From: a virus
Lineage: Duplodnaviria > Caudoviricetes
Virus record (IMG/VR): IMGVR_UViG_3300012953_000101
Span: 1 to 33,717 of that record
Length of the DNA: 33,717 nt
Strand: one strand, 5' to 3'
Of the stretch, positions 5,898-26,300 are shown piece by piece; position 1 is the first letter of the stretch, and each line of letters starts with the position of its first letter. Both the position numbers and the translations under genes were made by a program. The notes beneath the pieces were generated by a model, which saw nothing but the letters and a program-made list of their open reading frames with translations, was not told where the DNA came from and did no database searches.

Positions 5898-5902
5898 TAG
5901 TA

Positions 5903-7952: not shown

Positions 7953-8769
7953 TAAAAAAAGAAATGTAGGAATTATTTACGAACAGTTGTCTCAGGCTTT
8001 TTCTGAGTCACTTATTAATGGAAATAAAAAGAAATCTATTCTTATAAAAAAGATTATAGATGACCATTATAGAAAAGAAAGTGAAATATTTAAAGAGTTT
8101 AAAATTTTTAATGCTCTTATAAAAGTTGAAGTAGAAAGTGATTCTTTAGCTTCTAAAATTTTAGATGAAGCAAAAGATGCAACTAGAAATCTTAGTAGAA
8201 AAAAAATAGATATTGAAAAATCTCTTTTAATAAAAGACATCAACTATACTTTAAATGAATCAAGTTTTTATTCTAGAAAAGTTAAAAACTATAAAAATTT
8301 AGCCACAGTTCAAACTTTAATGAATATGTGGACAAATTCTTCTAAACAAAATTTTCAAAAATTAGCTGAATATGAAAATAAAGCTCACAATATTTTAAGA
8401 GAAGCAAAAATAAGAAAGATTGAAAAAATAGATCCTAATATTGATTCTCTTGTTTTAAAAATTATGCAAGAAAAATTTAATAAAAAATACGCGCCGATTC
8501 TGTCAAGCCTTCAATCAAAAATTATTGAAACATATGTTTTTGGAGATGAACAAAAAACTTCAAAACTCTTATCAGAAATAAAATCTTCATCAATTCATAG
8601 CATTAAAGCTTTTGAAGATTCATGCGAAGATAAAATTCTTTTAGAAAAATCAAATAGAGTTATTGAAAACATTAAAAATTTAGATGAAAATTTAATTAAC
8701 GATGATAATATCACCAAATTTTTATTAGCTTGCAAGCTTAAAGAGCAAATCGAGGGCAAAAATGAATAA
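7936..8769 (+). CDS. Hypothetical head-module protein (basic, helical)
   Basis: 277 aa between the portal and protease, overlapping both. Begins KHNKKRNVGIIYEQL. GTG 7942 after GAGG 7932-7935 is an alternative start. Confidence 0.75.
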   Translation: MIVKHNKKRNVGIIYEQLSQAFSESLINGNKKKSILIKKIIDDHYRKESEIFKEFKIFNALIKVEVESDSLASKILDEAKDATRNLSRKKIDIEKSLLIKDINYTLNESSFYSRKVKNYKNLATVQTLMNMWTNSSKQNFQKLAEYENKAHNILREAKIRKIEKIDPNIDSLVLKIMQEKFNKKYAPILSSLQSKIIETYVFGDEQKTSKLLSEIKSSSIHSIKAFEDSCEDKILLEKSNRVIENIKNLDENLINDDNITKFLLACKLKEQIEGKNE

Positions 8770-9370
8770 AAAGCTATTAACAGACTGGACTCCTTTTGAG
8801 TACACAAAAGAGATGATTCAAGAGTCTAGAGACCAAAATGGCGGTAAGATTTTAATGAAAGGAGTCTTACAAAAAGCTGATACGCTTAACCAAAATGGTC
8901 GGGTTTATCCAGAAGTAATTTTAGATAGGGAAGTTAGAAACTATCAAAAATTTATTAGAGAAAATAGAGCGCTTGGAGAGTGCGACCATCCAGACTCTTC
9001 AGTTGTAGAACTTAAAAATGTTTCTCATATCGTAAGAGAAGCTTATATGGATGGCCAAGTTTGTTATGGCATTGTTGAGTTATTAGATACGCCAGCAGGA
9101 AAAATTCTCCAAAGCCTTGTAGAATCTGGAGTAACGCTTGGTATCTCAAGTCGAGGCGTTGGCTCCACCAAGAGAGACGGAGATCACCAAGTAGTTCAAG
9201 ATGATTTTCAGTTAATCTGCTGGGATTTTGTTAGTGAACCATCAACGCCTGGAGCCTTTATGATGAAAGAAGGCAGGGAAATCAGCGACGAAGAATTAAA
9301 TAAACATTTTAATTTTACTGATAGAGTTGATAGAATATTTAATGACATCTTAGAATGGGATGGTGAATAA
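8762..9370 (+). CDS. gp21: Prohead core protease (T4 gp21-like)
   Basis: NQNGRVYP, ALGECDHP (His), GISSRGVGS (Ser), WDFVSEPSTPGAFM. Confidence 0.95.
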   Translation: MNKKLLTDWTPFEYTKEMIQESRDQNGGKILMKGVLQKADTLNQNGRVYPEVILDREVRNYQKFIRENRALGECDHPDSSVVELKNVSHIVREAYMDGQVCYGIVELLDTPAGKILQSLVESGVTLGISSRGVGSTKRDGDHQVVQDDFQLICWDFVSEPSTPGAFMMKEGREISDEELNKHFNFTDRVDRIFNDILEWDGE

Positions 9371-9765
9371 TGGCAAATTGGACAACTCCGAAAGAAGGTT
9401 ATGTTCCTTCATATCAATTATCAGGCAAACCGTACACAACACAAGTATCTGCTGTGGCTGCCGCCGGCGGGACAAAGGTTACTTTTCCTGCTGTTACCAG
9501 GTGGATTCAAGTCACAAACACAACCGCCACCGCCGTGAAGCTTGGCTTTTCAGCTCATGGTGTTGATGGCACTGAAGATGATTATTTCATTACTATCCCT
9601 GGAAAAAATAAAAATGACCAAAACTCAACCGGAGTTTTAGAACTTCGTTGTAAGAGTATATTTTTGAAATCAGCCAGTGGTACTATAGTAATAGACGTCG
9701 TTGCAGGTTTAACTGACATATTAGATTTAAGCTCGAAACTATCTGGTTCAGAAGGTGTTGGATAA
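9370..9765 (+). CDS. Hypothetical beta-rich protein, possibly a head decoration protein
   Basis: Coupled to both neighbours by TAATG overlaps. Thr/Val/Gly-rich, with alternating beta-strand patterns. The function is inferred from position only. Confidence 0.7.
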   Translation: MANWTTPKEGYVPSYQLSGKPYTTQVSAVAAAGGTKVTFPAVTRWIQVTNTTATAVKLGFSAHGVDGTEDDYFITIPGKNKNDQNSTGVLELRCKSIFLKSASGTIVIDVVAGLTDILDLSSKLSGSEGVG

Positions 9766-10190
9766 TGGCAAAGATGTCTAGAACGCAACTTAAAGGTATA
9801 GTAAAAGAATGCTTAATGGAAATTCTTTTAGAGGGTTTAGATTCAAGATCAGCCGTTAATTCACTAATGGAGTCTTCTCAACCAACTCCTCGAAAGAAAA
9901 AGAAGCCACAAACAACCAGGCGTCCCGCATTAGATTCAATTCAAATCAACTCAAGAATTCAAGAACAGGTTTCAAATTTAACTTCAGACCCTATTATGGG
10001 AGAAATATTTGCAGACACCGCCCGGTCTGGAATTCAAGAGTCTACAAATCAAGGAAATAGAGTTTCTCATTCAGATCAAGTAAGACAGTCTGGAGACACC
10101 GCCGCTAAGCAAGTTGCGCAATCTGATCCATCAGACTTATTTGGAGATTCAGCTCATAATTGGGCAGATCTTGCATTTTCTTCAAAATAA
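9765..10190 (+). CDS. Hypothetical head-associated protein
   Basis: Translationally coupled. N-terminal amphipathic helix QLKGIVKECLMEILLE with several hydrophobic-x-E sites. Confidence 0.75.
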   Translation: MAKMSRTQLKGIVKECLMEILLEGLDSRSAVNSLMESSQPTPRKKKKPQTTRRPALDSIQINSRIQEQVSNLTSDPIMGEIFADTARSGIQESTNQGNRVSHSDQVRQSGDTAAKQVAQSDPSDLFGDSAHNWADLAFSSK

Positions 10191-10253: not shown

Positions 10254-10538
10254 ATGTCAAAAGTTAAAACTCTTACTCCATCTTTGTTAAAAAGACTTAT
10301 TGCTGAGGAGAGATCAAAGTTATTTAAAGAGACTTCAGATCCTGTAGTTGCAGGAGTGGAAAAAGCTGAAGATGTTGAAGCAGAAGAAGTAGACGCAGAC
10401 GAATTAGCAGGCAGTTTAGAAAAAGATATAGATCATCTTAAAGCGCTTAAAATTGCAGAAGCAAAACTAAGAAGGATCGCCAAGCAAGTCTCCCAAAAGA
10501 AAAAGTTAGTTTCAGAAAGAATAATTAAAAACTTATAA
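10254..10538 (+). CDS. Small prohead-core-like protein
   Basis: Strong SD AAGGAG. N-terminal LLKRLIAEE, acidic middle, basic coiled-coil end. Confidence 0.8.
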   Translation: MSKVKTLTPSLLKRLIAEERSKLFKETSDPVVAGVEKAEDVEAEEVDADELAGSLEKDIDHLKALKIAEAKLRRIAKQVSQKKKLVSERIIKNL

Positions 10539-11734: not shown

Positions 11735-13327
11735 ATGAGTCTTAACATATATCAAGATGCTATTATAGAAGCAAAGCAGCTAAGAGAAGCTGCTGAGCAA
11801 AATGCTAAAAATAAAATAATAGAAGCCATCACGCCACAAATCCAGATGATGATTGAACAACAATTAGAAGATGAATTTGACGACGACGCGATGGGCTTCG
11901 AAGATTTAGATGATGAATCTCTTGAAGATGAAGTCCCTGAGCCGTCTTTAGACTTAGGTTCTTTATCTTTATCGAGTATGCCAGAAGATACCGACGATGA
12001 CCCGGCCGATGAAGAAGATTCTATCGATCCATTGATAGGTATTAAAGTCATGGGAGATATGGAGATCGATCTAGATTCAGAACAAGACGAAGATGACGAT
12101 GAAGATCTTCTTTTAAATAAAGAGGGTGTTGAGTATCTAGAATCTTTTATTAAAGAATCAAAAAATAATAGGATTTCTCATAGAATAGAAGTTCTGGGAG
12201 AGGGGATTGCGAGTCTCTCTGAAGCAATATCCAATATTGAACTCTCCAAATTAAACACTAGAGAGAGGGCAATTGCCATTAATTACTATGGTAAATTGCT
12301 AAGAGAGATTTATAGTTTATCTCAGAACATTATATTTATGAACGAGTCTATAGACGACAGGCTCGAATATCAAATTATTTCAATGCTTAAGGAGTTAAAA
12401 GACATGTCAAAAGCAAATGATAGAGCAGCATTCCGTAGGCTCTTTGAAGAGCTGGCCCAAGCAGGCCTCACGGAGCAGGAAGACGCGGCTGAAGAAGCTG
12501 AAGAGGCTGAAGAAGCAGAGTTAGATGTTGATGTTGATGCTGCAGAAGGAGCCCTAGAAGATCTAGGCGCTGCGCTCGGTTTAGACATTGAAATATCTGA
12601 TGATGCAGTCGAAGCCGATGAAGACGAAGACGAAGATGAAGATGAAGATGAAGATGTAGAAGCCGGCGAAGAGCTCGATCTTGATCTTTCAGAAGAAGAC
12701 GAAATGCACCACGGAGAAACTGACGAAACAGATGAGGTTTATGAGATCTCAGAAGCATCACTCCGTAGAGAGCTTCGTAAAATGAGACGTCTTAGAGAGC
12801 AAGAAGAAGCAGCAGATGCAGACCCTCACCTTGCTCATGGTGGAGAAGAAATCGGCGATGTTATCGAAATTGACGAAGAAGACCTCATTAATGTTCTAGC
12901 AGACGAACTCGGATCTCACGAAGGTGGAGAGCCAACTGTTGAATCTCGTCGCAGAACTAGAACTAGATCAACTAACCGCAGAAAATTAGTAAGAGAGAAC
13001 ACAAGGCTTAAAAAGCAACTCTCAGAAATGAACCTTTTTAACGCGAAGCTATTATTTGCTAATAAGCTCATGCAAAATCGTGAGCTTTCAACTAAGCAGC
13101 AGCGCGCTATCGTAGAAGCACTTGACAATGCTTCAACAATCAAAGAAGCTAAGTTACTTTATAAGACACTAAGTGAATCTTTGACACGCAAATCTAGAAA
13201 GAACCTTTCAGAAGGCAAATCTAGACTATTATCATCAGCTTCCCGATCAACCCGATCTGCCGCACCGGCAAAAAGTGGCGTTGAGGTTGACAGATGGTCA
13301 GTCCTTGCAGGACTAAACAACAAGTAA
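11735..13327 (+). CDS. Prohead core/scaffold protein
   Basis: Directly upstream of the MCP. Very acidic middle, helical N-terminus (EAKQLREAAEQNAK), C-terminal coiled coil (LSEMNLFNAKLLFANKL) and terminal DRWSVLAGL. Many [LIV]-x-E sites. Confidence 0.82.
   Translation: MSLNIYQDAIIEAKQLREAAEQNAKNKIIEAITPQIQMMIEQQLEDEFDDDAMGFEDLDDESLEDEVPEPSLDLGSLSLSSMPEDTDDDPADEEDSIDPLIGIKVMGDMEIDLDSEQDEDDDEDLLLNKEGVEYLESFIKESKNNRISHRIEVLGEGIASLSEAISNIELSKLNTRERAIAINYYGKLLREIYSLSQNIIFMNESIDDRLEYQIISMLKELKDMSKANDRAAFRRLFEELAQAGLTEQEDAAEEAEEAEEAELDVDVDAAEGALEDLGAALGLDIEISDDAVEADEDEDEDEDEDEDVEAGEELDLDLSEEDEMHHGETDETDEVYEISEASLRRELRKMRRLREQEEAADADPHLAHGGEEIGDVIEIDEEDLINVLADELGSHEGGEPTVESRRRTRTRSTNRRKLVRENTRLKKQLSEMNLFNAKLLFANKLMQNRELSTKQQRAIVEALDNASTIKEAKLLYKTLSESLTRKSRKNLSEGKSRLLSSASRSTRSAAPAKSGVEVDRWSVLAGLNNK
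12620..12655 (+). repeat. (GAAGAY)6 coding tandem repeat encoding (ED)6
   Basis: GAAGAC x2 then GAAGAT x4, read directly from the sequence. Confidence 0.85.
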
Positions 13328-13348: not shown

Positions 13349-15247
13349 ATGAGCAAATTTACGCTTAATCAATTAACTGAAGGTATCCGGCAAAGGCACG
13401 TCGGGACCCATAACCGTCAACTAGTCGAAAAGTGGAGCCGTACCGGTCTCCTCCGCGGCCTTGAGGGTACTACGCGCGAAAACATGGCCACTCTGCTTGA
13501 AAACCAGGCAGCCCAGGTTCTTCGTGAAGCCAATTCAATTTCAACTGGGGGTGGAAGTATGACCTCTAGTGGTGATCTTCGTGGATTCACCAACATCGCA
13601 TTCCCAATCGTACGTAGAGTATTCGGTGGATTAGTTGCTAACGAGTTAGTTTCTATTCAGCCAATGTCTCTTCCATCCGGTCTGCTCTTCTACCTCGACT
13701 ACACCTATGGTACAGTCGTTGGTGATGTTGCTGCCGATGGTGGTGCTACATACGTAACTGGTTCTTCCATCTATGGTTCACCAGTTGGTAAAGGTATCCG
13801 TTCTGGTTCAAACGGCGTCGGCGGTCAGTATGACCTTGCTGGTTCCGGTTACTCCAGAGTCCACGGTACCCAGACCCTCGTCCAGGCTGACATTCTCGCA
13901 TCTGGAGCTTTCCGCGATAACAGCTCTCTAACTGAGAACATCACTGCTATGGCAACTGGTTCTGATGGAAGTTTCCTCCAGTTCGATCCACAGATCACAA
14001 GAGCTATTCTTAATAACAATGGTTCCGGTGGAGCTGGCGCTAAAGTCGGTAACGCTGCTTACTCTTTCGTAGTCGTCGGTGTTGATACTCTTAGTAACCT
14101 CGATTCGTCTATGATTAAGGAAGTCGGCCTTCTCGTCGAGACTCCAGGCACAGAGCCACCAGGTATTGCCAATATTGGTAATGACACAGACGGAAACCCA
14201 ATTCAGCAGGGTAGTCAGTTATTCAATGTTCGTCGTCTTAACAGACTTGGAACATATTCTGGCGGCGCTTGGACATCTAATCCACTTGCTGATATTAGCA
14301 GCAGTGAAACTGCGATTCTTATGGTCGTATCCGGTGTTGCAGGAGACCCAGCTACATTCGGTCCTCGCCTTGAGGTTACTTACCCACTTGCACCAGCTCT
14401 TAGTACTGGAGCAAGCGGTGATACCCTCACCATACCAACCTTCGAGTCTACTTTCACTAGCAGCCCAACCCCAGAGATTCCTGAGATCGACATTAAGATC
14501 GAAAGTATCGCTGTTACAGCTGTTACTCGGAAGCTTCGCGCTCGTTGGTCCCCAGAGCTCGCTCAGGACTTGAATGCTTACCACAGCCTTGACGCTGAGG
14601 TTGAGCTTACTCAGATCCTCTCCGAGCAAGTTGCTCTTGAGCTTGATAGAGAAATTCTTAACGACCTTCTCACCCAGGCTAAGACTAACTACTTCTGGAG
14701 CCGTGCGCCAGGTAACTTTGTCAACAAGAAAGATGGTACTTCTGGTGGCGTCCCAAGTGGAGCTAGCTTCACTGGTACAGTCCGCGAATGGTACGAGACT
14801 CTTGTAGAGACCATTATCGATGTTGCTAATGAAATCCACCGCTTAACGCTTCGTGGTTCAGCTAACTTCATCGTCGTCTCACCAGACGTTGCTACAGTCC
14901 TTGAAGCTTCTGTCCTTTACCGTCCAAGCTATGCTCTCGACGGAGAAGGCCAAGTTTCTGGTGGAATGAGCATCGGCGCAGAGAAGGTCGGTACCCTTAG
15001 CAACCGTTTCACGGTCTACAAGGATCCATACTTCCCACGCAACAAGGTACTCGTCGGATACAAGGGTGGTAGCTACCTCGAAACAGGTTATGTCTACGCT
15101 CCATACGTACCACTGATTGTTACACCTACAATCTTCGCTCCAGAGGACTTCACCCCGCGTAAGGGTGTTATGACTCGCTATGGTAAGAAGATGGTTCGTT
15201 CTGACTTCTACGGTACAGTTACAGTCATGGATCTCAACATTATCTAA
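13349..15247 (+). CDS. gp23: Major capsid protein (T4 gp23-like) with an enlarged insertion region
   Basis: LLENQ, VSIQPMSLPSGLLFY, TRKLRARWSPELAQDLNAYHSLDAEVELTQILS..LELDREIL, GYVYAPYVPL, FTPRKGVMTRYG. Strong SD TAGGAG. Confidence 0.97.
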   Translation: MSKFTLNQLTEGIRQRHVGTHNRQLVEKWSRTGLLRGLEGTTRENMATLLENQAAQVLREANSISTGGGSMTSSGDLRGFTNIAFPIVRRVFGGLVANELVSIQPMSLPSGLLFYLDYTYGTVVGDVAADGGATYVTGSSIYGSPVGKGIRSGSNGVGGQYDLAGSGYSRVHGTQTLVQADILASGAFRDNSSLTENITAMATGSDGSFLQFDPQITRAILNNNGSGGAGAKVGNAAYSFVVVGVDTLSNLDSSMIKEVGLLVETPGTEPPGIANIGNDTDGNPIQQGSQLFNVRRLNRLGTYSGGAWTSNPLADISSSETAILMVVSGVAGDPATFGPRLEVTYPLAPALSTGASGDTLTIPTFESTFTSSPTPEIPEIDIKIESIAVTAVTRKLRARWSPELAQDLNAYHSLDAEVELTQILSEQVALELDREILNDLLTQAKTNYFWSRAPGNFVNKKDGTSGGVPSGASFTGTVREWYETLVETIIDVANEIHRLTLRGSANFIVVSPDVATVLEASVLYRPSYALDGEGQVSGGMSIGAEKVGTLSNRFTVYKDPYFPRNKVLVGYKGGSYLETGYVYAPYVPLIVTPTIFAPEDFTPRKGVMTRYGKKMVRSDFYGTVTVMDLNII

Positions 15248-15271: not shown

Positions 15272-15300
15272 GAGGGGCCTGAAAGGGCCCCTCTTTTTTT
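15272..15300 (+). terminator. Rho-independent terminator after the MCP
   Basis: GAGGGGCCT-GAAA-GGGCCCCTC (9-bp stem with one U.G pair, GNRA loop) followed by TTTTTTT. Confidence 0.93.
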
Positions 15301-15311
15301 ATCTTTCGGTA

Positions 15312-15318
15312 ATACTTA
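15312..15318 (+). promoter_or_regulatory. ATAnTTA motif (putative promoter for the tubulin cassette)
   Basis: ATACTTA just downstream of the terminator and 40 nt upstream of ATG 15352. Confidence 0.55.
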
Positions 15319-15351
15319 TTACTATTACCAAAGTAGATCTTGGAGGACACA

Positions 15352-15615
15352 ATGGCAACTACTTCTACTAGTACCACAGCGGTTAAAAAAACAGTAAAGA
15401 CCGCTTCAAAAAACAATACTGCAGCTCTTGAAAAGAGAGTTGATGAATTAGAAAAGAGACTTACAGCTTGCGAAGCATGCTGCTCTGTACAAAAGACTGA
15501 TGGGGATTTTGTAACTTGGGATGATCTTAAAAATGTTCTAGGCAGAGCCGGCGGACAATATCGTGCTCTTAGGAACACCATAAAGGAATCGCTGAGAGAT
15601 GGCAAGCTCAGTTAA
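15352..15615 (+). CDS. Small coiled-coil protein preceding the tubulin gene
   Basis: SD GGAGG at 15342-15346 supports ATG 15352 over TTG 15340. Thr/Lys-rich arm, heptad LEKRVDELEKRL, then CEACC. Confidence 0.75.
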   Translation: MATTSTSTTAVKKTVKTASKNNTAALEKRVDELEKRLTACEACCSVQKTDGDFVTWDDLKNVLGRAGGQYRALRNTIKESLRDGKLS

Positions 15616-16738
15616 ATCTGGTTCTTTAGGAAGAAAATTAAGTAAAAACAAAAAAAAGAAAAAAGAGGCAAAAAAACAAATGATACATGAAAATGAATCT
15701 GGATTCGACGACGATTTTGATTTCGTAGAAGCATATGACGAAGACCCGGCTGCTATCAATGAACAAATGCTTCCAGAAAATGAAGTAGACAGTGCAATTT
15801 CGTGTGCATTTGTTGGAGTTGGCGGTGGAGGAGGAAAACTAGCTAAAGCTTTTTTAGACGCTGGTTTTAACAAAACCTTGTTAGTAAACACTACAGAAAA
15901 AGATCAGCCAGACGGTGTTCCAGAAGAGCACTTTTTATTAATCCCCGGAGCTGATGGAGTCGGAAAAGACGTTACTCTTGGAAAAGAAGTGCTAAGTAGT
16001 AATGGAGCTCTTGTAGAAGATGCTCTTAGAACTAGAATTGGTAAAGTAGATTGGATATTTGTTCTCGCCGGTGGCGGTGGCGGAACTGGAAGTGCATGTC
16101 ACAGCATTCATGACGCAATGTCTAGATATTTAACTTCTACAGGGGCTTCAGGAAAAGTAGTCTATATAGTTACTAAGCCATCTGCTCAAGAGCTTTTAAA
16201 TCCAACCATATCTAATAACTTTTCGCAGCTATTTTCTGATGTAAGCGCTTCTCCCCACATTCTAATTGATAATGAAAGACAGTTGCACCTTTTACGTGGT
16301 AAAGTTGGTATGCTAGGTATGTACCCACTTGCTAATAAAAACTTTGCAAAGCTTTTTTCCCAAGTTTTAAAATTAGCTAATGAACCATCTCCAATTCAAA
16401 GTTTTGACTCTAAAGATTTAGAAAAATGTTTAGCAGTTCCCGGAAGAATGGTTATAGGAAGCACCGTAGTAAGAGATCACTCAGTTAGAGATCTTGGAGC
16501 CACATTATATCAAGGATGTATTAAGTCTTCTCCTTGTCCAGCTCCAGCTAAATCTTCAAAAACCGGTGTATTACTATTAGTAGCAACATCTGAAATAGCT
16601 TCAGATCCAGAAGTATCTAATAAAATAGAAGCTGCATTCTCTTATGTTGGAGGAAGAGCGGATACTTTGTTTTCTGGAGTTTATGTTAAAGAAAGAATCC
16701 CTGGCCTTATAGCAATTTCTTTATTGGGCGGAATGTAA
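15599..16738 (+). CDS. Tubulin/FtsZ-superfamily GTPase (PhuZ/TubZ/CetZ-like)
   Basis: T1 FVGVGGGGGKLA, T2 LVNT, T3 GADGVGKD, T4 signature GGGGGTGS (nt 16070-16093), T5 TKPSAQE, T6 LIDNE, H7 ANKNFA, T7-like SFDSKD. The real start may be ATG 15680 (GAGG at 15665-15668). Confidence 0.92.
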   Translation: MASSVKSGSLGRKLSKNKKKKKEAKKQMIHENESGFDDDFDFVEAYDEDPAAINEQMLPENEVDSAISCAFVGVGGGGGKLAKAFLDAGFNKTLLVNTTEKDQPDGVPEEHFLLIPGADGVGKDVTLGKEVLSSNGALVEDALRTRIGKVDWIFVLAGGGGGTGSACHSIHDAMSRYLTSTGASGKVVYIVTKPSAQELLNPTISNNFSQLFSDVSASPHILIDNERQLHLLRGKVGMLGMYPLANKNFAKLFSQVLKLANEPSPIQSFDSKDLEKCLAVPGRMVIGSTVVRDHSVRDLGATLYQGCIKSSPCPAPAKSSKTGVLLLVATSEIASDPEVSNKIEAAFSYVGGRADTLFSGVYVKERIPGLIAISLLGGM

Positions 16739-16804
16739 AAAAAAATATTAAAGAGTTACATGTAAAAATCACACGTAGATTTTTAACAGGGTAATTTTTC
16801 TAAA

Positions 16805-16866
16805 AAAAGCCTCTGGGAATTAACTATTTATTTACTATATTTAGTAATGTAGTTCCAGAGGCTTTT
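16805..16866 (+). promoter_or_regulatory. Inverted repeat covering the RBS of the neck gene, with an ATAnTTA motif in the loop
   Basis: AAAAGCCTCTGG (16805-16816) and CCAGAGGCTTTT (16855-16866) form a perfect 12-bp pair. ATATTTA at 16837. ATG at 16869. Confidence 0.7.
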
Positions 16867-16868
16867 AT

Positions 16869-18050
16869 ATGTCTACCGCATTTTACAAAACTTTAAACCC
16901 AACTCCATTTGGTAATTTTGATGACGATCAAGAATTTCAACAAGATGCTGATAAGATCGTTACTTTTGTCAAAAGAAAATTAGGCGATGATTTATTAAGC
17001 GTAGAACTAACTAAAAAACAAATTTGGGCTTGCTTTGAAGAAGCCACTATGGAATATGGCACTTTAATTAATGAATACCAAACTAAATCACAGTTGTCTA
17101 ACTTATTAGGAATTACTACTGGATCTAATGTTGAGGGTAAATATGCTCATGAAACTCTTGATTTTATTTTAAGATTAGCAGAACCTTATGCGCAAGAAGG
17201 TGGTTTTGGTGGTTCGTATAATACGCTCTCTGGCTCTATAGCTCTAGAAGACGGTAGACAAGATTATGACATGTACTCTGAACTAAAAGATGGGAGTGGA
17301 AACTTAATTTTTTCTTCTAGCTTAAACGGAGACGGCGCAGGTAAATTAAAAATCCATGAAGTTTTTCACTTCTCACCACAAGCTGCTTATAGGTTTTTTG
17401 ATACGACATCTGCAATAAATTATCTTAATAATGAATTTTCATTCGAGTCATTTACTCCAGAGACCGTATTTTATGTTTTACCAGTCTTCGAAGATGTACT
17501 TCGAGGTGGAATGATGGATATGTCTAATAGAGTTAGAAGATCTAATTTTTCTTATAGAACTTCCGGAACAAAAATAAGAATATTTCCAACACCTACATTT
17601 ACAGACGAAACAGCTTCAACTAAAAAACTTTGGTTAAGAGTTGGTTTTGGTAATGACCCATTTGATCCTGCATATAATGATTCTACTGTAGAGGGAGTAA
17701 GTACAGTTGCGAATATTCCTTTTAACTATTTAACTTATAAAAGCATTAATTCGATGGGGAGACAGTGGATATATGAGTATACTCTAGCACTATCTATGGA
17801 GATATTAGGTCTTATAAGGTCTAAATTTGGAAGCGTACCAATCCCCGGAGGAGATCTTCAGCTTAATGGAACAGACTTATTATCTAGAGCTACATCAGAA
17901 AAAGAGAAACTTATGGCTCATATGAAAGAGCTTTTAGAGAATCTTACATATGATAAGATGCTAGAAGGAGAAGCTACAAAAGCTGAAAATCTTCAAAGAG
18001 TTCTTAAAACTATACCTATACCAGTAGGGAAAGCGATTATAATCGGTTAA
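16869..18050 (+). CDS. Neck / head-tail adaptor protein (T4 gp13-like)
   Basis: N-terminal VKRKLG...VELTKKQI and C-terminal WIYEYTLAL..EILGLIRSKFGSVPIPGGDLQLNG resemble gp13 motifs. Position fits. Confidence 0.82.
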   Translation: MSTAFYKTLNPTPFGNFDDDQEFQQDADKIVTFVKRKLGDDLLSVELTKKQIWACFEEATMEYGTLINEYQTKSQLSNLLGITTGSNVEGKYAHETLDFILRLAEPYAQEGGFGGSYNTLSGSIALEDGRQDYDMYSELKDGSGNLIFSSSLNGDGAGKLKIHEVFHFSPQAAYRFFDTTSAINYLNNEFSFESFTPETVFYVLPVFEDVLRGGMMDMSNRVRRSNFSYRTSGTKIRIFPTPTFTDETASTKKLWLRVGFGNDPFDPAYNDSTVEGVSTVANIPFNYLTYKSINSMGRQWIYEYTLALSMEILGLIRSKFGSVPIPGGDLQLNGTDLLSRATSEKEKLMAHMKELLENLTYDKMLEGEATKAENLQRVLKTIPIPVGKAIIIG

Positions 18051-18053
18051 ACT

Positions 18054-18734
18054 ATGTCTAGACTTTTTATCACACCTAGAGAGCTTGATTTAATATCTCA
18101 TTTAAACAAAGAGATTATAAAGGACGTAGTGGGTCAAAAAGTTTACTATTACAAAGTCAGAGATGACCTATCAGATGTTCACGATGTTTATGAAGAATCT
18201 CCAGAGAAAGTATTTGACCCTCCAGTTGAAATGGATGCAAGAGTAGAATGGAATATGGCATCTTATAGAACTAATAAATTTGGTGTAGAGGAATATTCAG
18301 AAATAACTGTATGGTTTCACCAAAGAGATTTAATGCATAAACAATTAGACGCTGAAACTGGAGATTATTTGTCTTATGGAGATACTTTCTTTGAAGTAAT
18401 ATCTGCAGTTGTTGATAATACTTTGTTTGGCCAAATAGAATATAGCACTGGATATGTGTTAAAATGTAGACAGGCAAGGAAAGGCTTAATTAACAAAACT
18501 CCGCACGGTCCTACTAGTGAAGAATACTCAGATCCTGGGGCCGTTCAAGAGACATTCGTTCAACAAAGAGGTTTCTCCAGCAATCGTCTTGGAGATACTG
18601 GCGATGAAAGAGACTTAATAAATCAAGGTAAATTAGAACTTCCAATTTCAGGTGAACCAGCAGAAGTATCCCCAAGAGGAGATGATTCTGGCGTATCTTC
18701 ATCTTTTTATGCAGACCAAGGAATTAAGAAATAA
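18054..18734 (+). CDS. Head-closure/neck protein (gp14-like position)
   Basis: VGQKVYYY, DVYEES and GDYLSYGDTFFEV (GDxx...FEV stopper-type pattern). Lies between the gp13-like and gp15-like genes. Confidence 0.65.
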   Translation: MSRLFITPRELDLISHLNKEIIKDVVGQKVYYYKVRDDLSDVHDVYEESPEKVFDPPVEMDARVEWNMASYRTNKFGVEEYSEITVWFHQRDLMHKQLDAETGDYLSYGDTFFEVISAVVDNTLFGQIEYSTGYVLKCRQARKGLINKTPHGPTSEEYSDPGAVQETFVQQRGFSSNRLGDTGDERDLINQGKLELPISGEPAEVSPRGDDSGVSSSFYADQGIKK

Positions 18735-20014
18735 TGTCAACTTATTATCAAACTGGCAATGGTTATTTACCTTTCGGTTCTTCGGTAGGAGAAGAAATTG
18801 AAGTTCCTGATTGCTCTGTTGAAGATGTGGATAGAGCATTATTTAACTTTTTTAATAAAGACTTAGATTTATATTACAAAGAAAATAATAAAAATTCTAA
18901 AAGAGTACCAGTTATTTTTGCCACTGGCGAAAGATTTGCAGTTCTGAGAAGAAAAAAGCCATTAAGGGATAAATCTTCTGCACTAATTCTTCCTTTAATA
19001 TCTATATCTAGAACTGGAGTGAACCAGTCTATATCTAGAGGGATGGGAACAAATCAAGTTGGTGATATAACAATAAAGAAAAAATTATCTGCTAAAGACC
19101 CTGCATATCAAAGGTTTATGAATAAAGAAAATCTAATTAACCAAGATGATAGAGCCCACCCTTCACACTATATCCCTAATGTAGATAGAAATGCTTCAGA
19201 TGGCGATGGGACCGAGCCTGGAAAAATAGCAAAAAGAAGATCAAATATACAATCTAGCCCAGACTTTAGATCTGGAAAGTTAATCAGTAAAAAAGCAGCC
19301 AACAATATTTACGAAATATACACTATAAGATCTCCAAAATATTTTACTGCAACTTATGATATAACGATATGGACACAGTATATGCAACAAATGAACGATA
19401 TTTTAAGTTGCATTATGTCATCTTATCATAGTCAAGGAGTTAGGTCTGTAAGGGTCGAATCTGAAAAAGGCTATTATTTTGTGGCATATTTTGGAGAATC
19501 TATAGCATCAGAAGCAAATTTTGATGATTTTAGTGATGATGAGAGAATAGTTAAGTATTCGATGAGTGTAGAAGTTACAGGTTATATAATAAACCCTAAA
19601 TTTCCAGGGTCTAAATCAATTGTCACAAAATACATATCAGCGCCACAAATAAGTTTTGATATGATAGAAGTTAATGCAATGCCAAAACAAATAGACATGA
19701 GAGGAATCGCGAGTGGAAACCCAGATGATTATATTTTGCAAGACTTAACAACAATTGATGAACCGTTACCAGCTGGGGCAATTGGAAACAATTCTTTGAC
19801 TAATGATCCACCATATTATAAAAACACTAATGTCGGTGGAACAGAGTCTGGTCCGGACCCATTAACGGTAGAGAGAAAGTATATAGATCCATACACGGGT
19901 CAAACAGTCAAACAGGAACTTAAAATTAAATCTAGAAACCAGAGATCTGGTGAAACGGTTTATAAAGAACAAATTACTTATGATTTAGGCGAAATAGTAC
20001 TAACTCCTAAGTAA
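18734..20014 (+). CDS. Tail completion / sheath stabiliser (T4 gp15-like) with extensions
   Basis: KRVPVIFATGER, ILPLISISRTG, YDITIWTQYMQQMNDIL, YSMSVEVTGYI. Directly precedes the sheath genes. Confidence 0.72.
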   Translation: MSTYYQTGNGYLPFGSSVGEEIEVPDCSVEDVDRALFNFFNKDLDLYYKENNKNSKRVPVIFATGERFAVLRRKKPLRDKSSALILPLISISRTGVNQSISRGMGTNQVGDITIKKKLSAKDPAYQRFMNKENLINQDDRAHPSHYIPNVDRNASDGDGTEPGKIAKRRSNIQSSPDFRSGKLISKKAANNIYEIYTIRSPKYFTATYDITIWTQYMQQMNDILSCIMSSYHSQGVRSVRVESEKGYYFVAYFGESIASEANFDDFSDDERIVKYSMSVEVTGYIINPKFPGSKSIVTKYISAPQISFDMIEVNAMPKQIDMRGIASGNPDDYILQDLTTIDEPLPAGAIGNNSLTNDPPYYKNTNVGGTESGPDPLTVERKYIDPYTGQTVKQELKIKSRNQRSGETVYKEQITYDLGEIVLTPK

Positions 20015-20031
20015 GATTGAAATTAACTTTA

Positions 20032-20038
20032 ATAATTA
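20032..20038 (+). promoter_or_regulatory. ATAnTTA motif upstream of sheath 1
   Basis: ATAATTA 42 nt upstream of ATG 20074. Confidence 0.5.
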
Positions 20039-20073
20039 TGATAGACAGCATATGCGCTTGAGGAGATAAAAAC

Positions 20074-23000
20074 ATGGCAGAACAAACATTTAGGTCTCCA
20101 GGGTTTTTCGAGCAGGAGATCGACCTTTCACAAAGACAGGCATCTCCGCTAGGAACACCGGCTGGAGTTATAGGCACAGCAGAAAAAGGACCTGCATTCG
20201 TGCCGGTCACTGTCGGGAGCTTCGCAGATTTCGAAACTAAGTTTGGAACTCTTCACCCAGATAGATTTGGTCCTTACGCAGTGAATGAGTATTTAAAATA
20301 TAGAGAAGCAGTAACCTACACTAGGGTGTTAGGTGCAGGATCAAACTCTAGTAACAGTGATATCAGCAATACCAGAACTTATGGTTATGTTAAAAATGCT
20401 GGTTTTAAACTTGTTAGCTCACGATCTGATGATGCAGTTGCAGGATTGATAGACCAAGGTATGGTTCAGTTTATAACTGCTTTACACTACGTTTCAGCCT
20501 CGCAAGAAGGTGTTGGTTATCCTTCTTTTACAGATAATGTTAGTTATCCTTCACTGGCAACTAGACCAACTAAATTTGGTGGTGCTCGAAATATTAACCT
20601 GGTCCGTGGAGTTATACTAACTTCAACTGGCTCAAGAGCTTTAGTAGCAGACCACAATCAAACAATTAATACTTCCTGGTTAAGAGCTAATACAGCAGCC
20701 GGGGCTGCAGCTCGAATAACAGCTACTCAATTCCGCAATTCTGGCGGAGAAGAAGCTACTGGCAATCCAAAGTATCAAACTTTCAAGCTAGTTATTTCTT
20801 CTTCTGCAGGACAAAGGTGGGGATATGATGATAATGTTGCTGGACTTAGAATCTACACAGCTTCTTTAAACCCAGCTAATAAACACTACATAGCTAACGT
20901 TCTAAACGCTGACCCAGATTTATTCCAAGAAGCGCAACACTTGCTTTGGCAAGATTTCGCTGTTGAAGACGAGCTAGCACCAGTTAGTCACTTAACAAAA
21001 TCTATTGGTTTATTCTCAGGTTCGACAAAAATAAACAATGTCGGCGCCGGCGATAAATGGATGGATTCGTTTGGAAGATTTGATACAAGATATACAACGC
21101 CAAGAACAACAAGCTTCATATCTCAGCCATTTGGAACCCAAGAGTTTGAGTTATTTCACTTTGAAACTATAGATGATGGTGCTTATGCGAACGATAAAGT
21201 TAAAATATCAATTAGTAACTTAGTAGCTTCTACAGATCCAAACTATGAATATGGAACATTTAACGTTGAAGTAAGAGTTCTCACTGACACTGACTTAGGT
21301 AGGGAAGTACTTGAAGTATTCCCTAATTGTAGTCTAGATCCAAAGAGCGACAGATTCATTGCTAAGCAAGTTGGTGATAAAAAAGTTTATTACGATTTTG
21401 ACTCTGAAGATCCAGATGATAGAAGAATTGTAATTGAAGGTCTTTATCCTAATAAATCTGCTAGAATTAGAGTAATTGTAGACGATGATGTATATAACCA
21501 AAGAATTCCAAAAACTTGCTTACCATTTGGTTTTACTGGAGTTCCAACGCTTAAGTTCTCAGATTCTCTAACAGATACAGGGCAAAAAATCAGAGCACTT
21601 GGAATTGATGTTGATAATGCATCTGATCAAGCTTTCAACAGAAGGATTGAACAAGGGATTGGTACCGGAGTTCGTGCACCATCACTAACAGGTTCAATTG
21701 TTCCTCCGCTTCCATTTAGATTTAAAGTCACTAGAGGTAAAGTAAAGCAGACTAGCACAAAATACAAGGGAGATATCGGTAAGAGCGAAAGAGTTGATTC
21801 ACGTTTATACTGGGGAGTTAAAACAACAAGATTACAATTAACTTCTTCTCTTCACACTAATGGATCTGTAAATCCAGCTTTAGATGCCAACGCAGGATCT
21901 ACTTTTAATAGAATAATTGGTGCATATAGTAAATTTACTGGAATTGAAAAACTAGATAACTTAGTCACTGGCTCTGGAAAAGACTACTTCAATAACAATA
22001 AGTTTAGTTTAGCTAAAGTTGCTTTACTAGATAATACTGTAGTTGCACTCTCTAGCTCCGCAGCAGAAGCTATGAAAAGATCGGCATACTTTAGAGACGC
22101 AATCCCAGATGGTACCACTTACAAGGTCTATGACCCTTCATATGGAACTGACAGGATAACACTTGCTTCTTTAGTACAGTCAAGCTCTATAAAATTCAAT
22201 AGATTCTCTGATTATGCAAAATTCACCAATATATTTTATGGTGGATGGGACGGATTAAACATTCTTGATAAAGATGTTCGATTAATGAGAGACAAAGCAG
22301 CATCTACTGACGCTGGAGGAAAAGGCGGAGATACTATTACTGGTGGATTAGGATTAGCAAACACTAGCAATGGTGGGATGATGGGCGCCGGCTCTCAAAA
22401 TAATGTCATCGCAGCTTATCGTAAAGCAGTCCAAATAATGACAGACAACACTATTGTTAACACGAATTTACTTTCTATTCCTGGAATTAGAGATCCATTC
22501 GTTACAGACTTAGCACTTAGATTAAATAAAGAATACGCTATGTCGATGTATGTCATGGACATTCAGCATTACGATGAAGATGAAAACAGGCTTTTCGACG
22601 GCGGTACAGCTAAACCAGATGCAAGAGAGACTGGAGAGCAATTTGAAAGTAGAACGGTCGATAATAACTATGCTGCTACATACTTCCCAGATGTATATAT
22701 TAATGATGCTGTTAATAACAGAAGCGTTAAAGTTCCATCTTCGGTAGCTGCACTTTCAGCTCTAGCTTATAATGATTCGGTGGCTTACCCATGGTTTGCA
22801 CCCGCAGGGTTTAACAGAGGGTCTCTTGGATCAGTTGTGAATACCCAGGTTAGACTATCAACTTCTGATAGAGACAACCTCTATGATGCTAGAATTAACC
22901 CGATTGCAAACTTCCCCACTGGCGGTTTTGTAATCTTCGGGCAAAAGACACTTCAGCAAGCTAAGTCTGCTCTAGACAGAGTTAATGTTAGAAGAATGCT

Positions 23001-23289
23001 TCTAGAAGTTAAGAGGCTGGTTGTACAAATAGCAGATAAGCTTCTATTTGAGCCTAACAACTCTAAAACAAGAGACAGGTTTGTTGGTCAAGTTGCACCA
23101 CTTCTTGCTTTGATTCAAACTCAGCAAGGAATTGAAAAATTCAAAGTAATTTGTGACAGCACTAACAACTCGCAAGAAGATGTTGATCAAAATAGGCTTA
23201 ATGGAAAGATCGTAGTTGTACCAACTAGATCAATTGAATTTATTGCTATTGACTTTATTGTAACAAACAGTGGCGTATTATTCGAATAG
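20074..23289 (+). CDS. gp18: Contractile tail sheath protein, paralog 1 (gp18-like)
   Basis: SPG..EIDLS N-terminus, G.A.KGPAFVP, PWFAPAGFNRG, INPIA.FP, FGQKTLQ, SALDRVNVRRMLL, FEPN, PTRSIEFIAIDF. Confidence 0.94.
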   Translation: MAEQTFRSPGFFEQEIDLSQRQASPLGTPAGVIGTAEKGPAFVPVTVGSFADFETKFGTLHPDRFGPYAVNEYLKYREAVTYTRVLGAGSNSSNSDISNTRTYGYVKNAGFKLVSSRSDDAVAGLIDQGMVQFITALHYVSASQEGVGYPSFTDNVSYPSLATRPTKFGGARNINLVRGVILTSTGSRALVADHNQTINTSWLRANTAAGAAARITATQFRNSGGEEATGNPKYQTFKLVISSSAGQRWGYDDNVAGLRIYTASLNPANKHYIANVLNADPDLFQEAQHLLWQDFAVEDELAPVSHLTKSIGLFSGSTKINNVGAGDKWMDSFGRFDTRYTTPRTTSFISQPFGTQEFELFHFETIDDGAYANDKVKISISNLVASTDPNYEYGTFNVEVRVLTDTDLGREVLEVFPNCSLDPKSDRFIAKQVGDKKVYYDFDSEDPDDRRIVIEGLYPNKSARIRVIVDDDVYNQRIPKTCLPFGFTGVPTLKFSDSLTDTGQKIRALGIDVDNASDQAFNRRIEQGIGTGVRAPSLTGSIVPPLPFRFKVTRGKVKQTSTKYKGDIGKSERVDSRLYWGVKTTRLQLTSSLHTNGSVNPALDANAGSTFNRIIGAYSKFTGIEKLDNLVTGSGKDYFNNNKFSLAKVALLDNTVVALSSSAAEAMKRSAYFRDAIPDGTTYKVYDPSYGTDRITLASLVQSSSIKFNRFSDYAKFTNIFYGGWDGLNILDKDVRLMRDKAASTDAGGKGGDTITGGLGLANTSNGGMMGAGSQNNVIAAYRKAVQIMTDNTIVNTNLLSIPGIRDPFVTDLALRLNKEYAMSMYVMDIQHYDEDENRLFDGGTAKPDARETGEQFESRTVDNNYAATYFPDVYINDAVNNRSVKVPSSVAALSALAYNDSVAYPWFAPAGFNRGSLGSVVNTQVRLSTSDRDNLYDARINPIANFPTGGFVIFGQKTLQQAKSALDRVNVRRMLLEVKRLVVQIADKLLFEPNNSKTRDRFVGQVAPLLALIQTQQGIEKFKVICDSTNNSQEDVDQNRLNGKIVVVPTRSIEFIAIDFIVTNSGVLFE

Positions 23290-23324: not shown

Positions 23325-26300
23325 ATGGCAGAACAAACATTTAGAAGTCCAGGAGTGGGAACAAGGGAGATCGATTTAAGCGGTCCGACTGCAACAGCTC
23401 CTCAGGGCACGCCGGCAGGAATTATAGGTACTGCAAAAGAGGGACCAGCATTTGTTCCTCAAACTGTAGCCACTTATCAAGACTTTGTCGCTATATTCGG
23501 ATCAACTGATGGCGAAAAACTCGGGCCATTAGCTATGTATGAGTGGATGAGAAATGCTCGAGCTGGTACTTACTTAAGAGTTTTAGGGGTTGGTACTGGA
23601 GAAAAAAGGCTTGACTCAGCAGGAACTGATGCAGACAGTAATACTATTGAAGCTGGAGGAGTAAAGAACTCTGGATTTACAGTAGGTCAGAGGGGAGTAC
23701 AAGACAATGGGCTTGTAGGAAATAATAGTTACGCATACGCAACAGCTAAAGGTGGCGAAAATAAAGGCCGAACATATTTGCTTGGAGCTTTTATGTCTGC
23801 TTCAGCTGGTTCTACTATCTTCGATGATGCTGGAATGGGAGCTGGTTTTAAAGGAAACACAATCCACCGAACCGGTGAAAACCAAGACAAAGGCTTCCCA
23901 ATTGTCCGTGGCGTTATCATGGTTCCGTCAGGAGTCGTTGCTTCGCTAAGTGGTTCCGGATACAGTGATAATACTCCCGCAACCGCAAAAGATTGGGATG
24001 TTAAATCTCTTGCCGGTGGTCATGTTGGAGATGTAAATCTTTCTAACACAACCAACTATGAATTTGTTATGTTGCTAAATGGCCACAAACATACTACAAG
24101 GTATCCAAACACTGTTACAGCTTCTCTCTCTCCATTGAGTCCGTCTTATCTGCCAAATATCCTAAATACGGACCCATCTAAAATAGAAGAGGCTGGACAC
24201 TACCTTTACAATTACTATACTGTTCACCCTAATTTAGCTATTATTACAGGATCTATGGTGTTAAGTGGGGCTTCTCAGTTCAAGCCAACAGGCTCTGGAG
24301 AGCCAGTTGCGTTCTTATTGACAAGTTCATTAAACCGAAACACAGGAAACGCAACAAAACCAAATTACGAAGGCTTTCAAGATAGATTCAGAACAGCATT
24401 TTCTCCATTCGTAACATCTCAGAAGTTTGGATCTAAAAGAACTAACTTGTTTAAGTTTCATGCTTTAAATGATGGAGATAGAAGCAAAGAGCAGTTAGCT
24501 ATTGAAATTGCAAATATTAAATCTGGAAAAACAGATAGAGATTATGGAAAGTTTGATGTCTACATTAAGAGAGTTCTTCCAGAAGCTCTCGGTGATGGAC
24601 CAATAGAGACTTTTTCTGGTGTCGACTTAAATCCTGGATCTGACAATTACATCGCTAGAAGAATTGGTGACTATAACATTTATTATGATTTTGATAAAAT
24701 GGCTGGAAACCAAAAAATAGTTGTTGAAGGAACACACCCGAACTTATCAAAACAAGTCAGAGTAGAAGTACACCCAGATGTTACAAATGGTAATGTTCAC
24801 CACAGCGCACTTCCATTGGGATACAGGGGTCCATACCACTTAGTTAGTTCTGGGTCAGATATCTTTAACGCTGCAGACGTATTTACTGGGTCTGGTGGTA
24901 ACGATGTACTCCAGGGAAGCTGGTGGGATCACTTAGTTGAACCACCACAGCCCCAGAGACAAAATATCTCCCTCGGAACTGATCCAAAGAGAGAAACTAG
25001 TTCAAGATTATCTTGGGGATTCCAGTTTGAAAAGCTTGATTCAACCACAGAGCCCAACAAGCAAGTTGTTGTAGACGAATCGATTTTAGCTTTCATGAAA
25101 TATTATCCATACTTCCAGACTGCTAATAGGCCAGCTTGGGTTGGAGATAACGCTGGAATATTAGATTCTGGTGGAACAATTTTAGATTCTGATAGGTTTA
25201 ACAATAATGCTTTTAGTATGGAGCAAATCCAAGTCCATACAAAATCTTCTTCAGACGTTGTAGATAATAACGAATGGGCATTTGCATCCTATAGAAGAAA
25301 AGGAGTGCTTAGTGCTTCTCTAAGAAAAACTGATGGAACTTTTGATCCAGGCAGATTCCTTGACGCTAGTAAAGACTTTGGAGATCCAGCTTCTACTAAA
25401 TTCCTCAGATTTACTTTCCCAATGCAGGGTGGTTTTGATGGAGTCAATATTTTTGATGCTCAAAAAGCAAAACTATCTAACCTAGCAGCATTAAGAGAAA
25501 TGAATGATACTAGTCAAGGTGAAGGAGAAGGGCAAACAGTTTCTACTTATCTTAAAGCTTTAGACGTAATGGCAGAAAAATCAGATGTAGACATTCAACT
25601 CCTTGCAATTCCTGGGATTAGAGAGACAAAAATCACAGATTATGCAGTCCAGAAGACAGAAGAAAGATTTGATGCTCTTTATATTATGGATATCGAAGAA
25701 AGAGATACACTTAATAACGTAGTTACTTCATCTCTTGAACAAACTGTTAGCGTTTCATTAACAGTCGATGACTTTAAGTCAAGGACTCTTGATACTTCAT
25801 TCGCCGCAGCATACTTCCCTGATGTCGTAATACCTGATCCAGCAACCCAAACAAATGTTCGGGCGGCACCTTCAGTTGCAGTTATTGGCGCTTTAGCTCT
25901 CAATGATGCTGTTGCATTCCCATGGTTTGCTCCCGCTGGCTTTACTCGCGGCGCACTCCAAGATGTGAACCAGTCAACATTAAACTTAAGCAAAAATAAT
26001 TTAGACGTGTTATATGATGCGGATATCAATCCAATCACTAAATTCCCGACCTCTTCTGGTCTGGTAATATTCGGTCAGAAGACCCTACTTAACGCTGCTT
26101 CTTCTCTTGATAGAGTTAACGTTCGTAGACTTCTAATTGACATTAGAAGAAAGGTAAGACAAGTTGCAGATACATTCTTATTCGAGCCTAACCGTGGTGA
26201 AACACTTACAAGGTTCTCAGCTGCAGTCAGCCCAATTCTTACAACTATTCAACAACAGCAAGGTTTAGATAGATTTAAGGTTCTTATTGATACTACTACC

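Follow-up and report, generated by a model that had tools for sequence, protein, structure and literature searches.

What would a phage with T4-type head genes do with a tubulin of its own? The question is raised by the IMG/VR virus record IMGVR_UViG_3300012953_000101, a single viral contig of 33.7 kb (positions 1 to 33,717, analysed over its whole length and referred to below as the window), in which an open reading frame (ORF) of the tubulin/FtsZ type sits between the genes for the major capsid protein (MCP) and the neck. A preliminary description, made from the letters of the sequence, had proposed a late-expressed tubulin cassette tied to virion assembly, or else an inhibitor of host division. 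The reading that we favour, with a probability of roughly 0.55, is that the encoded protein would form a GTP-polymerised filament which organises the infected cell, its N-terminal acidic arm acting as a docking peptide.

The available text of two articles names only PhuZ, of the nucleus-forming jumbo phages, and TubZ, of a plasmid-like prophage, as phage cytoskeletons (PMC7950403, PMC13282480), and the available part of a survey of marine jumbo phages confines tubulin to the phiKZ-like cluster (PMC9123017). Contrary to that survey, abundant marine T4-like giant phages carry a predicted tubulin-fold GTPase of their own, which is about as conserved as their MCP. No description of this family was found in the full-text literature (supplements and subscription journals lay outside the scope, so that "undescribed" is provisional), and since the family falls below the Pfam cut-off, routine annotation misses it.

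The tubulin-fold reading frame and its family

The reading frame is divided as follows (pLDDT, predicted local distance difference test).

15599-16738, + strand: tubulin/FtsZ-type ORF, 379 amino acids (aa), between the MCP and neck genes
15599-15784, + strand: N-terminal arm of the tubulin, residues 1-62, predicted disordered, with pLDDT under 50 for residues 1-54
15785-16738, + strand: FtsZ/tubulin core, residues 63-379 plus stop, GTPase domain followed by C-terminal domain
15815-15838, + strand: T1 loop
16067-16093, + strand: T4 signature
16403-16420, + strand: T7 loop, FDSKDL

The full motif set of tubulin and FtsZ claimed in the preliminary description is present, and comprises GVGGGGGK (T1), GADGVGKD (T3), AGGGGGTGS (T4, residues 157-165), KPSAQE (T5), IDNE (T6) and FDSKDL (T7, residues 269-274). 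In an hhalign comparison over 207 columns, E. coli FtsZ (E 3e-9) has counterparts of GVGGGGGK, AGGGGGTGS, KPSAQE and IDNE at the aligned positions, and FDSKDL is paired with the FtsZ T7 loop VDFADV. Both T7 aspartates, D270 and D273, are invariant in the 29 aligned sequences (29/29), GGGTGS occurs in 200/200 family sequences and FDSKDLE in 177 of the 200. With the loops and the T7 aspartates kept, the machinery for nucleotide binding and polymerisation-dependent hydrolysis appears intact. The Pfam family Tubulin (PF00091) matches the window protein with an E-value of 1.6e-5 and 25.7 bits, the gathering score being 33 bits, and is matched by all 29 aligned family members at E<=0.01.

An AlphaFold2 (AF2) model built with 29 homologues covers both domains with a mean pLDDT of 82.2 and a predicted template-modelling score (pTM) of 0.79, residues 1-54 lying under 50 and the remainder mostly above 90. 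The top Foldseek matches in the PDB are FtsZ, TubZ and CetZ (E 1e-20 to 1e-18). VIA-align gives Z 32.1 for CetZ2 (root-mean-square deviation, rmsd, 2.5; 290 aligned; 23% identity), 32.0 for B. cereus TubZ (4ei7; rmsd 2.4; 309 aligned, the longest alignment), 30.2 for B. thuringiensis TubZ (2xka) and 28.9 for S. aureus FtsZ (rmsd 3.0; 292 aligned); these structural alignments (Z 28-32) span residues 62-379, and the scores for CetZ, TubZ and FtsZ are so nearly tied that the subfamily is not assignable from the fold alone. Tubulin chains of the BtubA/B or eukaryotic type do not occur among the Foldseek and VIA-align matches listed. On the model, the fold is unambiguous, and ORF 15599-16738 is predicted to encode a complete FtsZ/tubulin-fold GTPase. 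Fused or longer forms of the family were absent at E<=1e-10 among 7999 long candidates, which is weak evidence.

The arm ahead of the core runs, in the alignment, from a MASxVK start through a variable lysine-rich linker to DDFDFVEAYDxDP...LPxN just before the core. Its acidic-aromatic motif is almost invariant (alignment invariants are F40, F42, V43, A45, Y46, D47, L58 and N61), FDF[VI] being found in 175/200 family sequences, and the linker preceding the FDFV motif measures from 1 to 138 residues (median 40). At its other end the window protein stops 5 residues after the last-strand motif and has no C-terminal tail; in 147 of the 152 sequences where that motif, PGLIAIS, was found, the C-terminus lies 5-7 residues past it. 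C-terminal tails of FtsZ, TubZ and PhuZ bind partners or neighbouring subunits. Given an arm that is predicted disordered yet conserved, and no tail, the arm may take the docking role that such tails have.

Of 8000 candidates scored in a word-indexed search, at least 1009 are homologues with E<=0.001; the top 120, for the most part marine in origin, share 62-91% identity with the window tubulin, and their contigs reach 290 kb. With an exhaustive profile search of a protein library reduced to clusters of 50% identity, 935 proteins reached E<=0.001, in three score bands: 710 bits for one representative of the tight family, 372-390 bits for its more distant members P0122 and P0123 and, beyond a gap into which fragments fall, 84-154 bits for a wide range of full-length FtsZ-like proteins. 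Of 98 candidate stretches in IMG/VR, 87 passed confirmation and 80 loci were retained; P0122, used there to seek more distant members, found only two loci, both of the main family. The nearest ESM-Atlas clusters are 87-100% viral, and the tubulin family is apparently virus-only.

Trees were built with FastTree (98 rows) and IQ-TREE (34 rows), the only named references being E. coli FtsZ, phiKZ PhuZ and phage G gp138, whose branches are long and whose placement is flagged as unsure. The family together with P0122 and P0123 is monophyletic (support 99). This clade, whose stem measures 1.05-1.18 substitutions per site, stands apart from those three references and from 82 more distant FtsZ-like proteins. 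The phylogeny that had been proposed against FtsZ, CetZ, TubZ, PhuZ and BtubA/B thus yields a separate, long-stemmed clade, with a reference set that covers only E. coli FtsZ, phiKZ PhuZ and gp138.

The host phages of the family are marine and T4-like, with genomes of about 250-290 kb: five relatives of 255-293 kb, one of them with terminal repeats, carry one tubulin each and an MCP 68-75% identical to that of the window. Tubulin and MCP lose identity to the window proteins in step, and other virion proteins diverge much more quickly (in the compared loci, down to 24-39% for the gp15-like protein and to 37-51% for the sheath), as in the following three loci.

L004: MCP 76%, tubulin 79%, adaptor 78%, sheath 64%
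L020: MCP 64%, tubulin 71%, adaptor 60%, gp15-like protein 36%
L036: MCP 43%, tubulin 60%, adaptor 33%

A subunit in contact with its neighbours through several faces would be expected to show such constraint over its whole length, although the constraint is no proof of it. In the Flavobacterium phage immuto, an ORF of 546 aa follows the MCP gene with one small ORF between them; it was rejected as a tubulin relative (hhalign E 0.43).

Comparison with named tubulins and two alternative functions

FtsZ is the only named family reached by sequence profile, FtsZ chains in the PDB matching at E ~5e-5. The two proteins have a two-domain fold in common, and the T1-T6 loops and the Asp-x-x-Asp of T7 align. 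Unlike FtsZ, the phage protein has an N-terminal acidic arm and neither C-terminal linker nor tether peptide, and its gene lies in the virion module of the window and not in a dcw cluster. In FtsZ, the C-terminal linker and the conserved tether peptide serve binding to FtsA/ZipA. A recent capture of host FtsZ was considered and rejected: the family forms its own long-stemmed clade instead of nesting within FtsZ, and the window protein scores 30.2 bits (E 2.8e-7) against NCBIfam TIGR00065, far below the cut-off of 295.2 (E. coli FtsZ, as a control, scores 471.7). None of the 89 full-length proteins scanned from the profile search (3 of the family and 86 more distant) reaches that cut-off, the maximum being 105.8 bits.

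This relationship opens a first alternative, interference with host division, in which the phage protein would be an FtsZ mimic that caps or co-assembles with host FtsZ, disables the Z ring and leaves the cell undivided and large. The relationship is detectable by three measures (hhalign, E 3e-9; TIGR00065, E 2.8e-7; PDB chains, ~5e-5), the lack of a C-terminal tail means that the window protein has no membrane-tether peptide, and phage inhibitors of FtsZ exist, lambda Kil being the example in the available text of PMC3961180. However, 18-20% identity to FtsZ chains and a score of 30 versus 295 bits make a fit to the longitudinal interfaces of FtsZ doubtful, and the intact T7 loop and conservation of the whole protein suit a self-assembling polymer better than a cap. 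The phage FtsZ inhibitors known to us are small peptides and not full GTPases with intact T7 loops. We regard interference with division as unlikely.

The best structural score is that of CetZ (PDB 4b45, 4b46 and 3zid), but its Z is within 1 unit of that of TubZ; by sequence, 3zid matches (E 7.5e-5) no worse than the FtsZ chains do. CetZ differs from the phage family in being archaeal and cellular.

TubZ/RepX (PDB 4ei7, 2xka and 4xcq) resembles the phage protein in core fold (Z 32.0 and 30.2, tied with CetZ and so non-discriminating) and in being encoded by mobile elements, and some nearby viral ESM-Atlas clusters have TubZ-like_C domains in 17-26% of their members. It differs in its weak sequence relation (4xcq, E 0.0077) and in its long C-terminal tail, which the phage protein lacks; the TubZ C-terminal domains (Pfam PF21493 and PF22453) give no match to it at E<=0.1. 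A TubZRC cassette was rejected on the missing domain and tail and on two further results: the region holds only short two-copy repeats, as expected from the earlier remark that no tubC-like iterons are visible, and no small DNA-binding neighbour of the TubR type is conserved across the gene contexts of the 80 loci. A second alternative, genome partition by a TubZ-like motor segregating a plasmid-like or carrier-state genome in pseudolysogeny, would draw on a fold similarity to TubZ that is among the best found, on the TubZ-like_C domains of the neighbouring ESM-Atlas viral clusters, and on Iyer et al., who in the available text tie some jumbo-phage tubulins to segregation in pseudolysogeny (PMC7824862). 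Against partition stand the absence of iterons near the gene, of a conserved DNA-binding neighbour, of a TubZ_C or TubZ-like_C match and of a long tail, an upstream small ORF restricted to the nearest relatives, and the location of the window gene inside a lytic-type T4 virion module, which together make it quite improbable.

PhuZ (phrog_4733) is, like the phage protein, a tubulin-fold GTPase of large-genome phages, and phiKZ PhuZ ends in an acidic-hydrophobic peptide (...LDVDDQATSSGLVFD) that resembles the arm by analogy only, being C-terminal in PhuZ and N-terminal in the window family. By sequence, PhuZ was rejected: there are 0 PHROG hits at E<=0.001 (phiKZ PhuZ, as a control, scores 395 bits against phrog_4733) and hhalign to phiKZ PhuZ gives E 0.31. 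The only named PhuZ-type rows in BFVD are the PhuZ of phage Noxifer (E 1.1e-12) and a tubulin-like protein of Edwardsiella phage pEt-SU (E 4.1e-11), with TMq 0.50-0.52, and going by the model PhuZ would be structurally more remote than FtsZ, TubZ and CetZ. Chimallin (phrog_4795), which was sought in relatives because the genome in the window is only 14% complete, is found in none of 5 large relatives (255-293 kb), of which three have a completeness of 92% or more; phiKZ, as the positive control, gives E 1.8e-232. The sequence, chimallin and iteron tests therefore agree with the earlier view that this tubulin, with intact GTPase and T7 loops in a T4-type phage, is distinct from PhuZ and from TubZRC.

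Bacillus phage G gp138 aligns with the window protein at E 2.7e-11 over 213 columns (hhalign), IDNEK and FDxxDL being common to both; it is nevertheless only 22% identical over 51% of the query, forms a separate branch in both trees, and belongs to another type of phage with another host. The available text of one source describes gp138 as FtsZ-like, CetZ-like by KEGG and not detected proteomically (PMC12484599). Four of the distant FtsZ-like proteins have unusual architectures: among P0246, P0265, P0251 and P0255, two carry an intein-like insertion after the first ~130 residues and the two others are fused to an AAA+/helix-turn-helix (HTH) region of the sigma-54-activator type.

Gene position, expression and the proposed filament

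The head and neck proteins of the window were placed in the 80 IMG/VR loci by tblastn, and three arrangements were distinguished. Arrangement A (20/80) has MCP-tubulin-neck as in the window; in arrangement B (4/80) the tubulin gene lies between the protease and the scaffold/MCP genes; and in arrangement C (56/80) no structural gene of the window is beside it, 10 of these loci having a flank too short on one side for certainty. Neighbours in type C include DNA methylase, GH25 lysozyme, PEPCK, PrkA, PhoH-PIN, glycosyltransferases and primase. The type C contigs belong to the same phage group: in five of 255-293 kb an MCP with 68-75% identity to that of the window is encoded, roughly 75-155 kb from the tubulin gene. 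The arrangements cluster on the tubulin tree (8 changes versus a shuffled mean of 21.5, with 0/200 shuffles as low), arrangement A occurs in at least four separate tubulin lineages, and with P0122 and P0123 as outgroup the root state is ambiguous between A and C by Fitch parsimony. The position of the window gene is neither random nor universal to the family. Of the synteny MCP-small ORF-tubulin-neck that the preliminary description had asked to be checked in relatives, MCP-tubulin-neck is kept in 20/80 loci and the small ORF in 0/80; the tie to virion assembly drawn from position is weakened by the 56/80 loci with the gene elsewhere, although placement is still non-random on the tree. At one locus (L014:5893-6999) the tubulin falls within the A-type clade of the window (79% identity) but stands in a C-type context, which suggests that the gene has recently moved or that related phages have exchanged it.

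The surroundings of the gene in the window hold the following features.

15272-15293, + strand: intrinsic-terminator-like hairpin, 9 pairs (7 GC), then TTTTTTTATC (terminator scan)
15310-15323, + strand: promoter-like box TAATACTTATTACT, common to the portal and tube upstream regions (upstream alignment)
15352-15615, + strand: small lineage-specific ORF, 87 aa (ORF list, sequence)
16751-16799 and 16805-16866, + strand: two stable hairpins between tubulin and adaptor genes (RNA folding)

The small ORF extends from ATG 15352 to the stop at 15615 and overlaps the tubulin start by 17 nucleotides (nt). It has a Thr/Lys-rich N-terminus and predicted helices (AF2 pLDDT 52.5, low confidence), and looks like a real gene: its frame is kept, at 75-77% identity, in two near relatives, the sole other homologues among 5.8 billion proteins. 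It is found in 0/80 related tubulin loci and in 0/5 large relatives. The same slot in A-type relatives holds unrelated ORFs of 149-219 aa (L003, L006 and L008), nothing (L007), or different small Thr/Lys-rich coiled-coil ORFs (L004 and L005; BLASTP of the window ORF versus that of L004 gives E 34). A TubR-like partner was considered and rejected, with Pfam DUF7310 at E 0.002 and 19 bits versus a 40-bit cut-off and an NCBIfam RelB-like antitoxin at E 0.01. Confined to the nearest relatives, the small ORF is best seen as a lineage-specific occupant of a variable slot and not as a partner of the tubulin family, so that the "small partner ORF" and the "cassette" of the preliminary description have to be given up.

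The terminator that had been noticed after the MCP gene is confirmed, as hairpin and T-run lie directly past the MCP stop at 15247. The motif said to precede structural genes, TAATAsTTAwTAyT, has exactly three matches in the window, at 5901 (portal), 15310 (small ORF) and 26432 (tube), each 25-30 nt ahead of a gene start, against 0.01 expected, a statistic inflated by the derivation of the pattern from these same three sites; before other structural genes of the window there are only looser versions, and the claim is partly confirmed. A similar box past a terminator is found upstream of tubulin in L003, L006, L008, L020 and L032, and 5/6 matches are A-type. With a terminator and the box upstream, the + strand in common with the structural genes, and the 17-nt overlap with the small ORF, late co-transcription with virion genes is plausible in the window phage, and expression of its tubulin would then be late. 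A late-promoter box (CTATTTAT) seen before tubulin in several C-type loci was rejected for the window, where it is not enriched (3 versus 3.3 expected).

Downstream, region 16751-16866 folds at -37.7 kcal/mol (z -5.79; 0/200 shuffles as stable). In the second of its hairpins, perfect 12-nt arms (16805-16816/16855-16866) close a loop of 38 nt, and UUUUAU follows. This hairpin sequesters the AGAGG that closely precedes the ATG of the adaptor gene, and might work as a terminator, as a translational control of that gene, or as both. A 42-nt imperfect inverted repeat (71% complementary; 15237-15278/16809-16850) brackets the pair formed by small ORF and tubulin, with a score of 29 that 4/1000 shuffles reach. 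T4-type phages have promoter-stem-loop cassettes that shuffle genes, which this repeat recalls. As a cassette boundary it was nonetheless rejected, since the intergenic stretch 20015-20073 scores 28 against the same arm, which suggests a shared intergenic motif (AATAGTTAAT).

In type C loci the tubulin gene often follows a transfer-messenger RNA (tmRNA) gene. Words of the tmRNA 3' end are present in about 28 of 76 upstream regions of tubulin genes, and ARAGORN finds a tmRNA in 8/10 loci examined, seven with an ...ALAA tag; in those seven the tmRNA, or a tRNA after it, ends 14-73 nt before the tubulin start. One-piece tmRNA genes upstream of type C tubulin are listed here.

L009:5572-5977
L011:5546-5912
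L019:4969-5349
L059:5404-5748
L070:5617-5957
L041:5509-5823
L082:1250-1569

Tags such as ANDNVEYDYALAA occur in type C loci, and AND...YALAA tags resemble proteobacterial ones, a weak hint on the host.

T4 core and internal proteins are encoded in the head region, and a last alternative would make the tubulin such a head-associated protein (of the prohead core, or packaged) with the arm as its targeting leader, which would explain its location among head genes in 24/80 loci and the window and suit a variable linker that comes after a conserved N-terminal peptide, yet it is very unlikely, as the start MASSVKSGS... is unlike the MSK-type leader of the MCP and of ORF 10254, the Glu of LPEN needed for a T4-type protease site is not invariant, the gene is far from head genes in 56/80 loci, and passive cargo would not need an intact GTPase and T7 loop.

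In the favoured reading of a filament that organises the infected cell, the window tubulin would polymerise with GTP, the filaments would act on phage DNA, proheads or the assembly zone, and the acidic arm would serve as docking peptide as C-terminal tails do in FtsZ, TubZ and PhuZ; we infer polymerisation, the role of the arm, the cargo and late expression. According to the available text of PMC7950403, phage tubulins had been found only in large-genome phages, and large virion parts in a crowded cytoplasm may need filaments.

Several points weigh against the filament reading. The Pfam score lies under the gathering cut-off, so that the tubulin call rests on fold and motifs, and tblastn against 50,697 deposited phage records found no family member but only gp138 of Bacillus phage G. 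Gene position is only a weak argument for a link with virion assembly, 56/80 loci being away from structural genes. The A and C contexts of the 80 loci have no neighbour family in common, and hence no cargo adaptor is identified; tubulin is often near tmRNA and PhoH-PIN in type C, so that timing may differ between lineages. The MASxVK-type start peptide is present in only 90/200 family sequences, and the arm as docking peptide would be an analogy and not a result.

A more specific version, which we put forward tentatively and at rather less than even odds, is that the family represents a third kind of phage tubulin, belonging to nucleus-less T4-like giants of the ocean, with an N-terminal docking peptide and filaments that move or position proheads or replicating DNA. 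The probability that remains beside the filament reading and its three alternatives is left to other functions. If filaments form, it becomes possible to test, away from the phage nucleus, what large phages need a cytoskeleton for; if the reading is true, cytoskeleton-driven virion production would be general to large phages and not a speciality of chimallin phages, and the arm would be a natural experiment in how polymers of the tubulin family attach partners.

Other features of the window

The window reads as a region of a marine T4-like phage that also encodes an SbcC-like nuclease, and its genes as read are all on the + strand; CheckV gives a completeness of 14%, which implies a genome of about 240 kb. 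The gp17/20/21/23-type neighbours named in the preliminary description are real: Pfam and PHROG identify the large terminase (TerL), portal, protease, MCP, neck adaptor, gp15-like protein, two sheaths, tube, hub and tape measure. Their genes are placed as follows.

4290-5897, + strand: TerL
5937-7952, + strand: portal
8762-9370, + strand: head protease
11735-13327, + strand: acidic scaffold-like protein
13349-15247, + strand: MCP, gp23 type (Pfam Gp23 E 2.9e-76; phrog_138 E 4.7e-73)
16869-18050, + strand: neck/head-tail adaptor-like (phrog_211 head-tail adaptor E 2.7e-8), downstream of tubulin in 17 loci
18734-20014, + strand: gp15-like protein
Further genes of the window, + strand: two long sheath paralogues, tube, baseplate hub and tape measure

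ORF 10254-10538 and the MCP start alike (MSKVKTLTPSLLKRLIAEE... and MSKFTLNQLTEGIRQ...), and ORF 9765-10190 begins MAKMSRTQLKGIVKECLMEILLEG...; to judge by their letters, these N-termini could be T4-type head-targeting leaders removed by the protease. The tubulin N-terminus (MASSVKSGS...) is without the MSK-type leader of the window MCP and ORF 10254. The MCP (13349-15247) is long, at 632 aa, and its Gp23 match falls in two stretches, which suggests an inserted domain. In a complete relative of 293 kb (L084, G003:C1:176275-180147) two MCP copies stand in tandem, 75% and 73% identical to the window MCP. The tail-sheath paralogues are likewise in tandem, at 20074-23289 (1071 aa) and 23325-26420 (1031 aa), each about twice the usual length and both with the N-terminal peptide MAEQTFRSPG.

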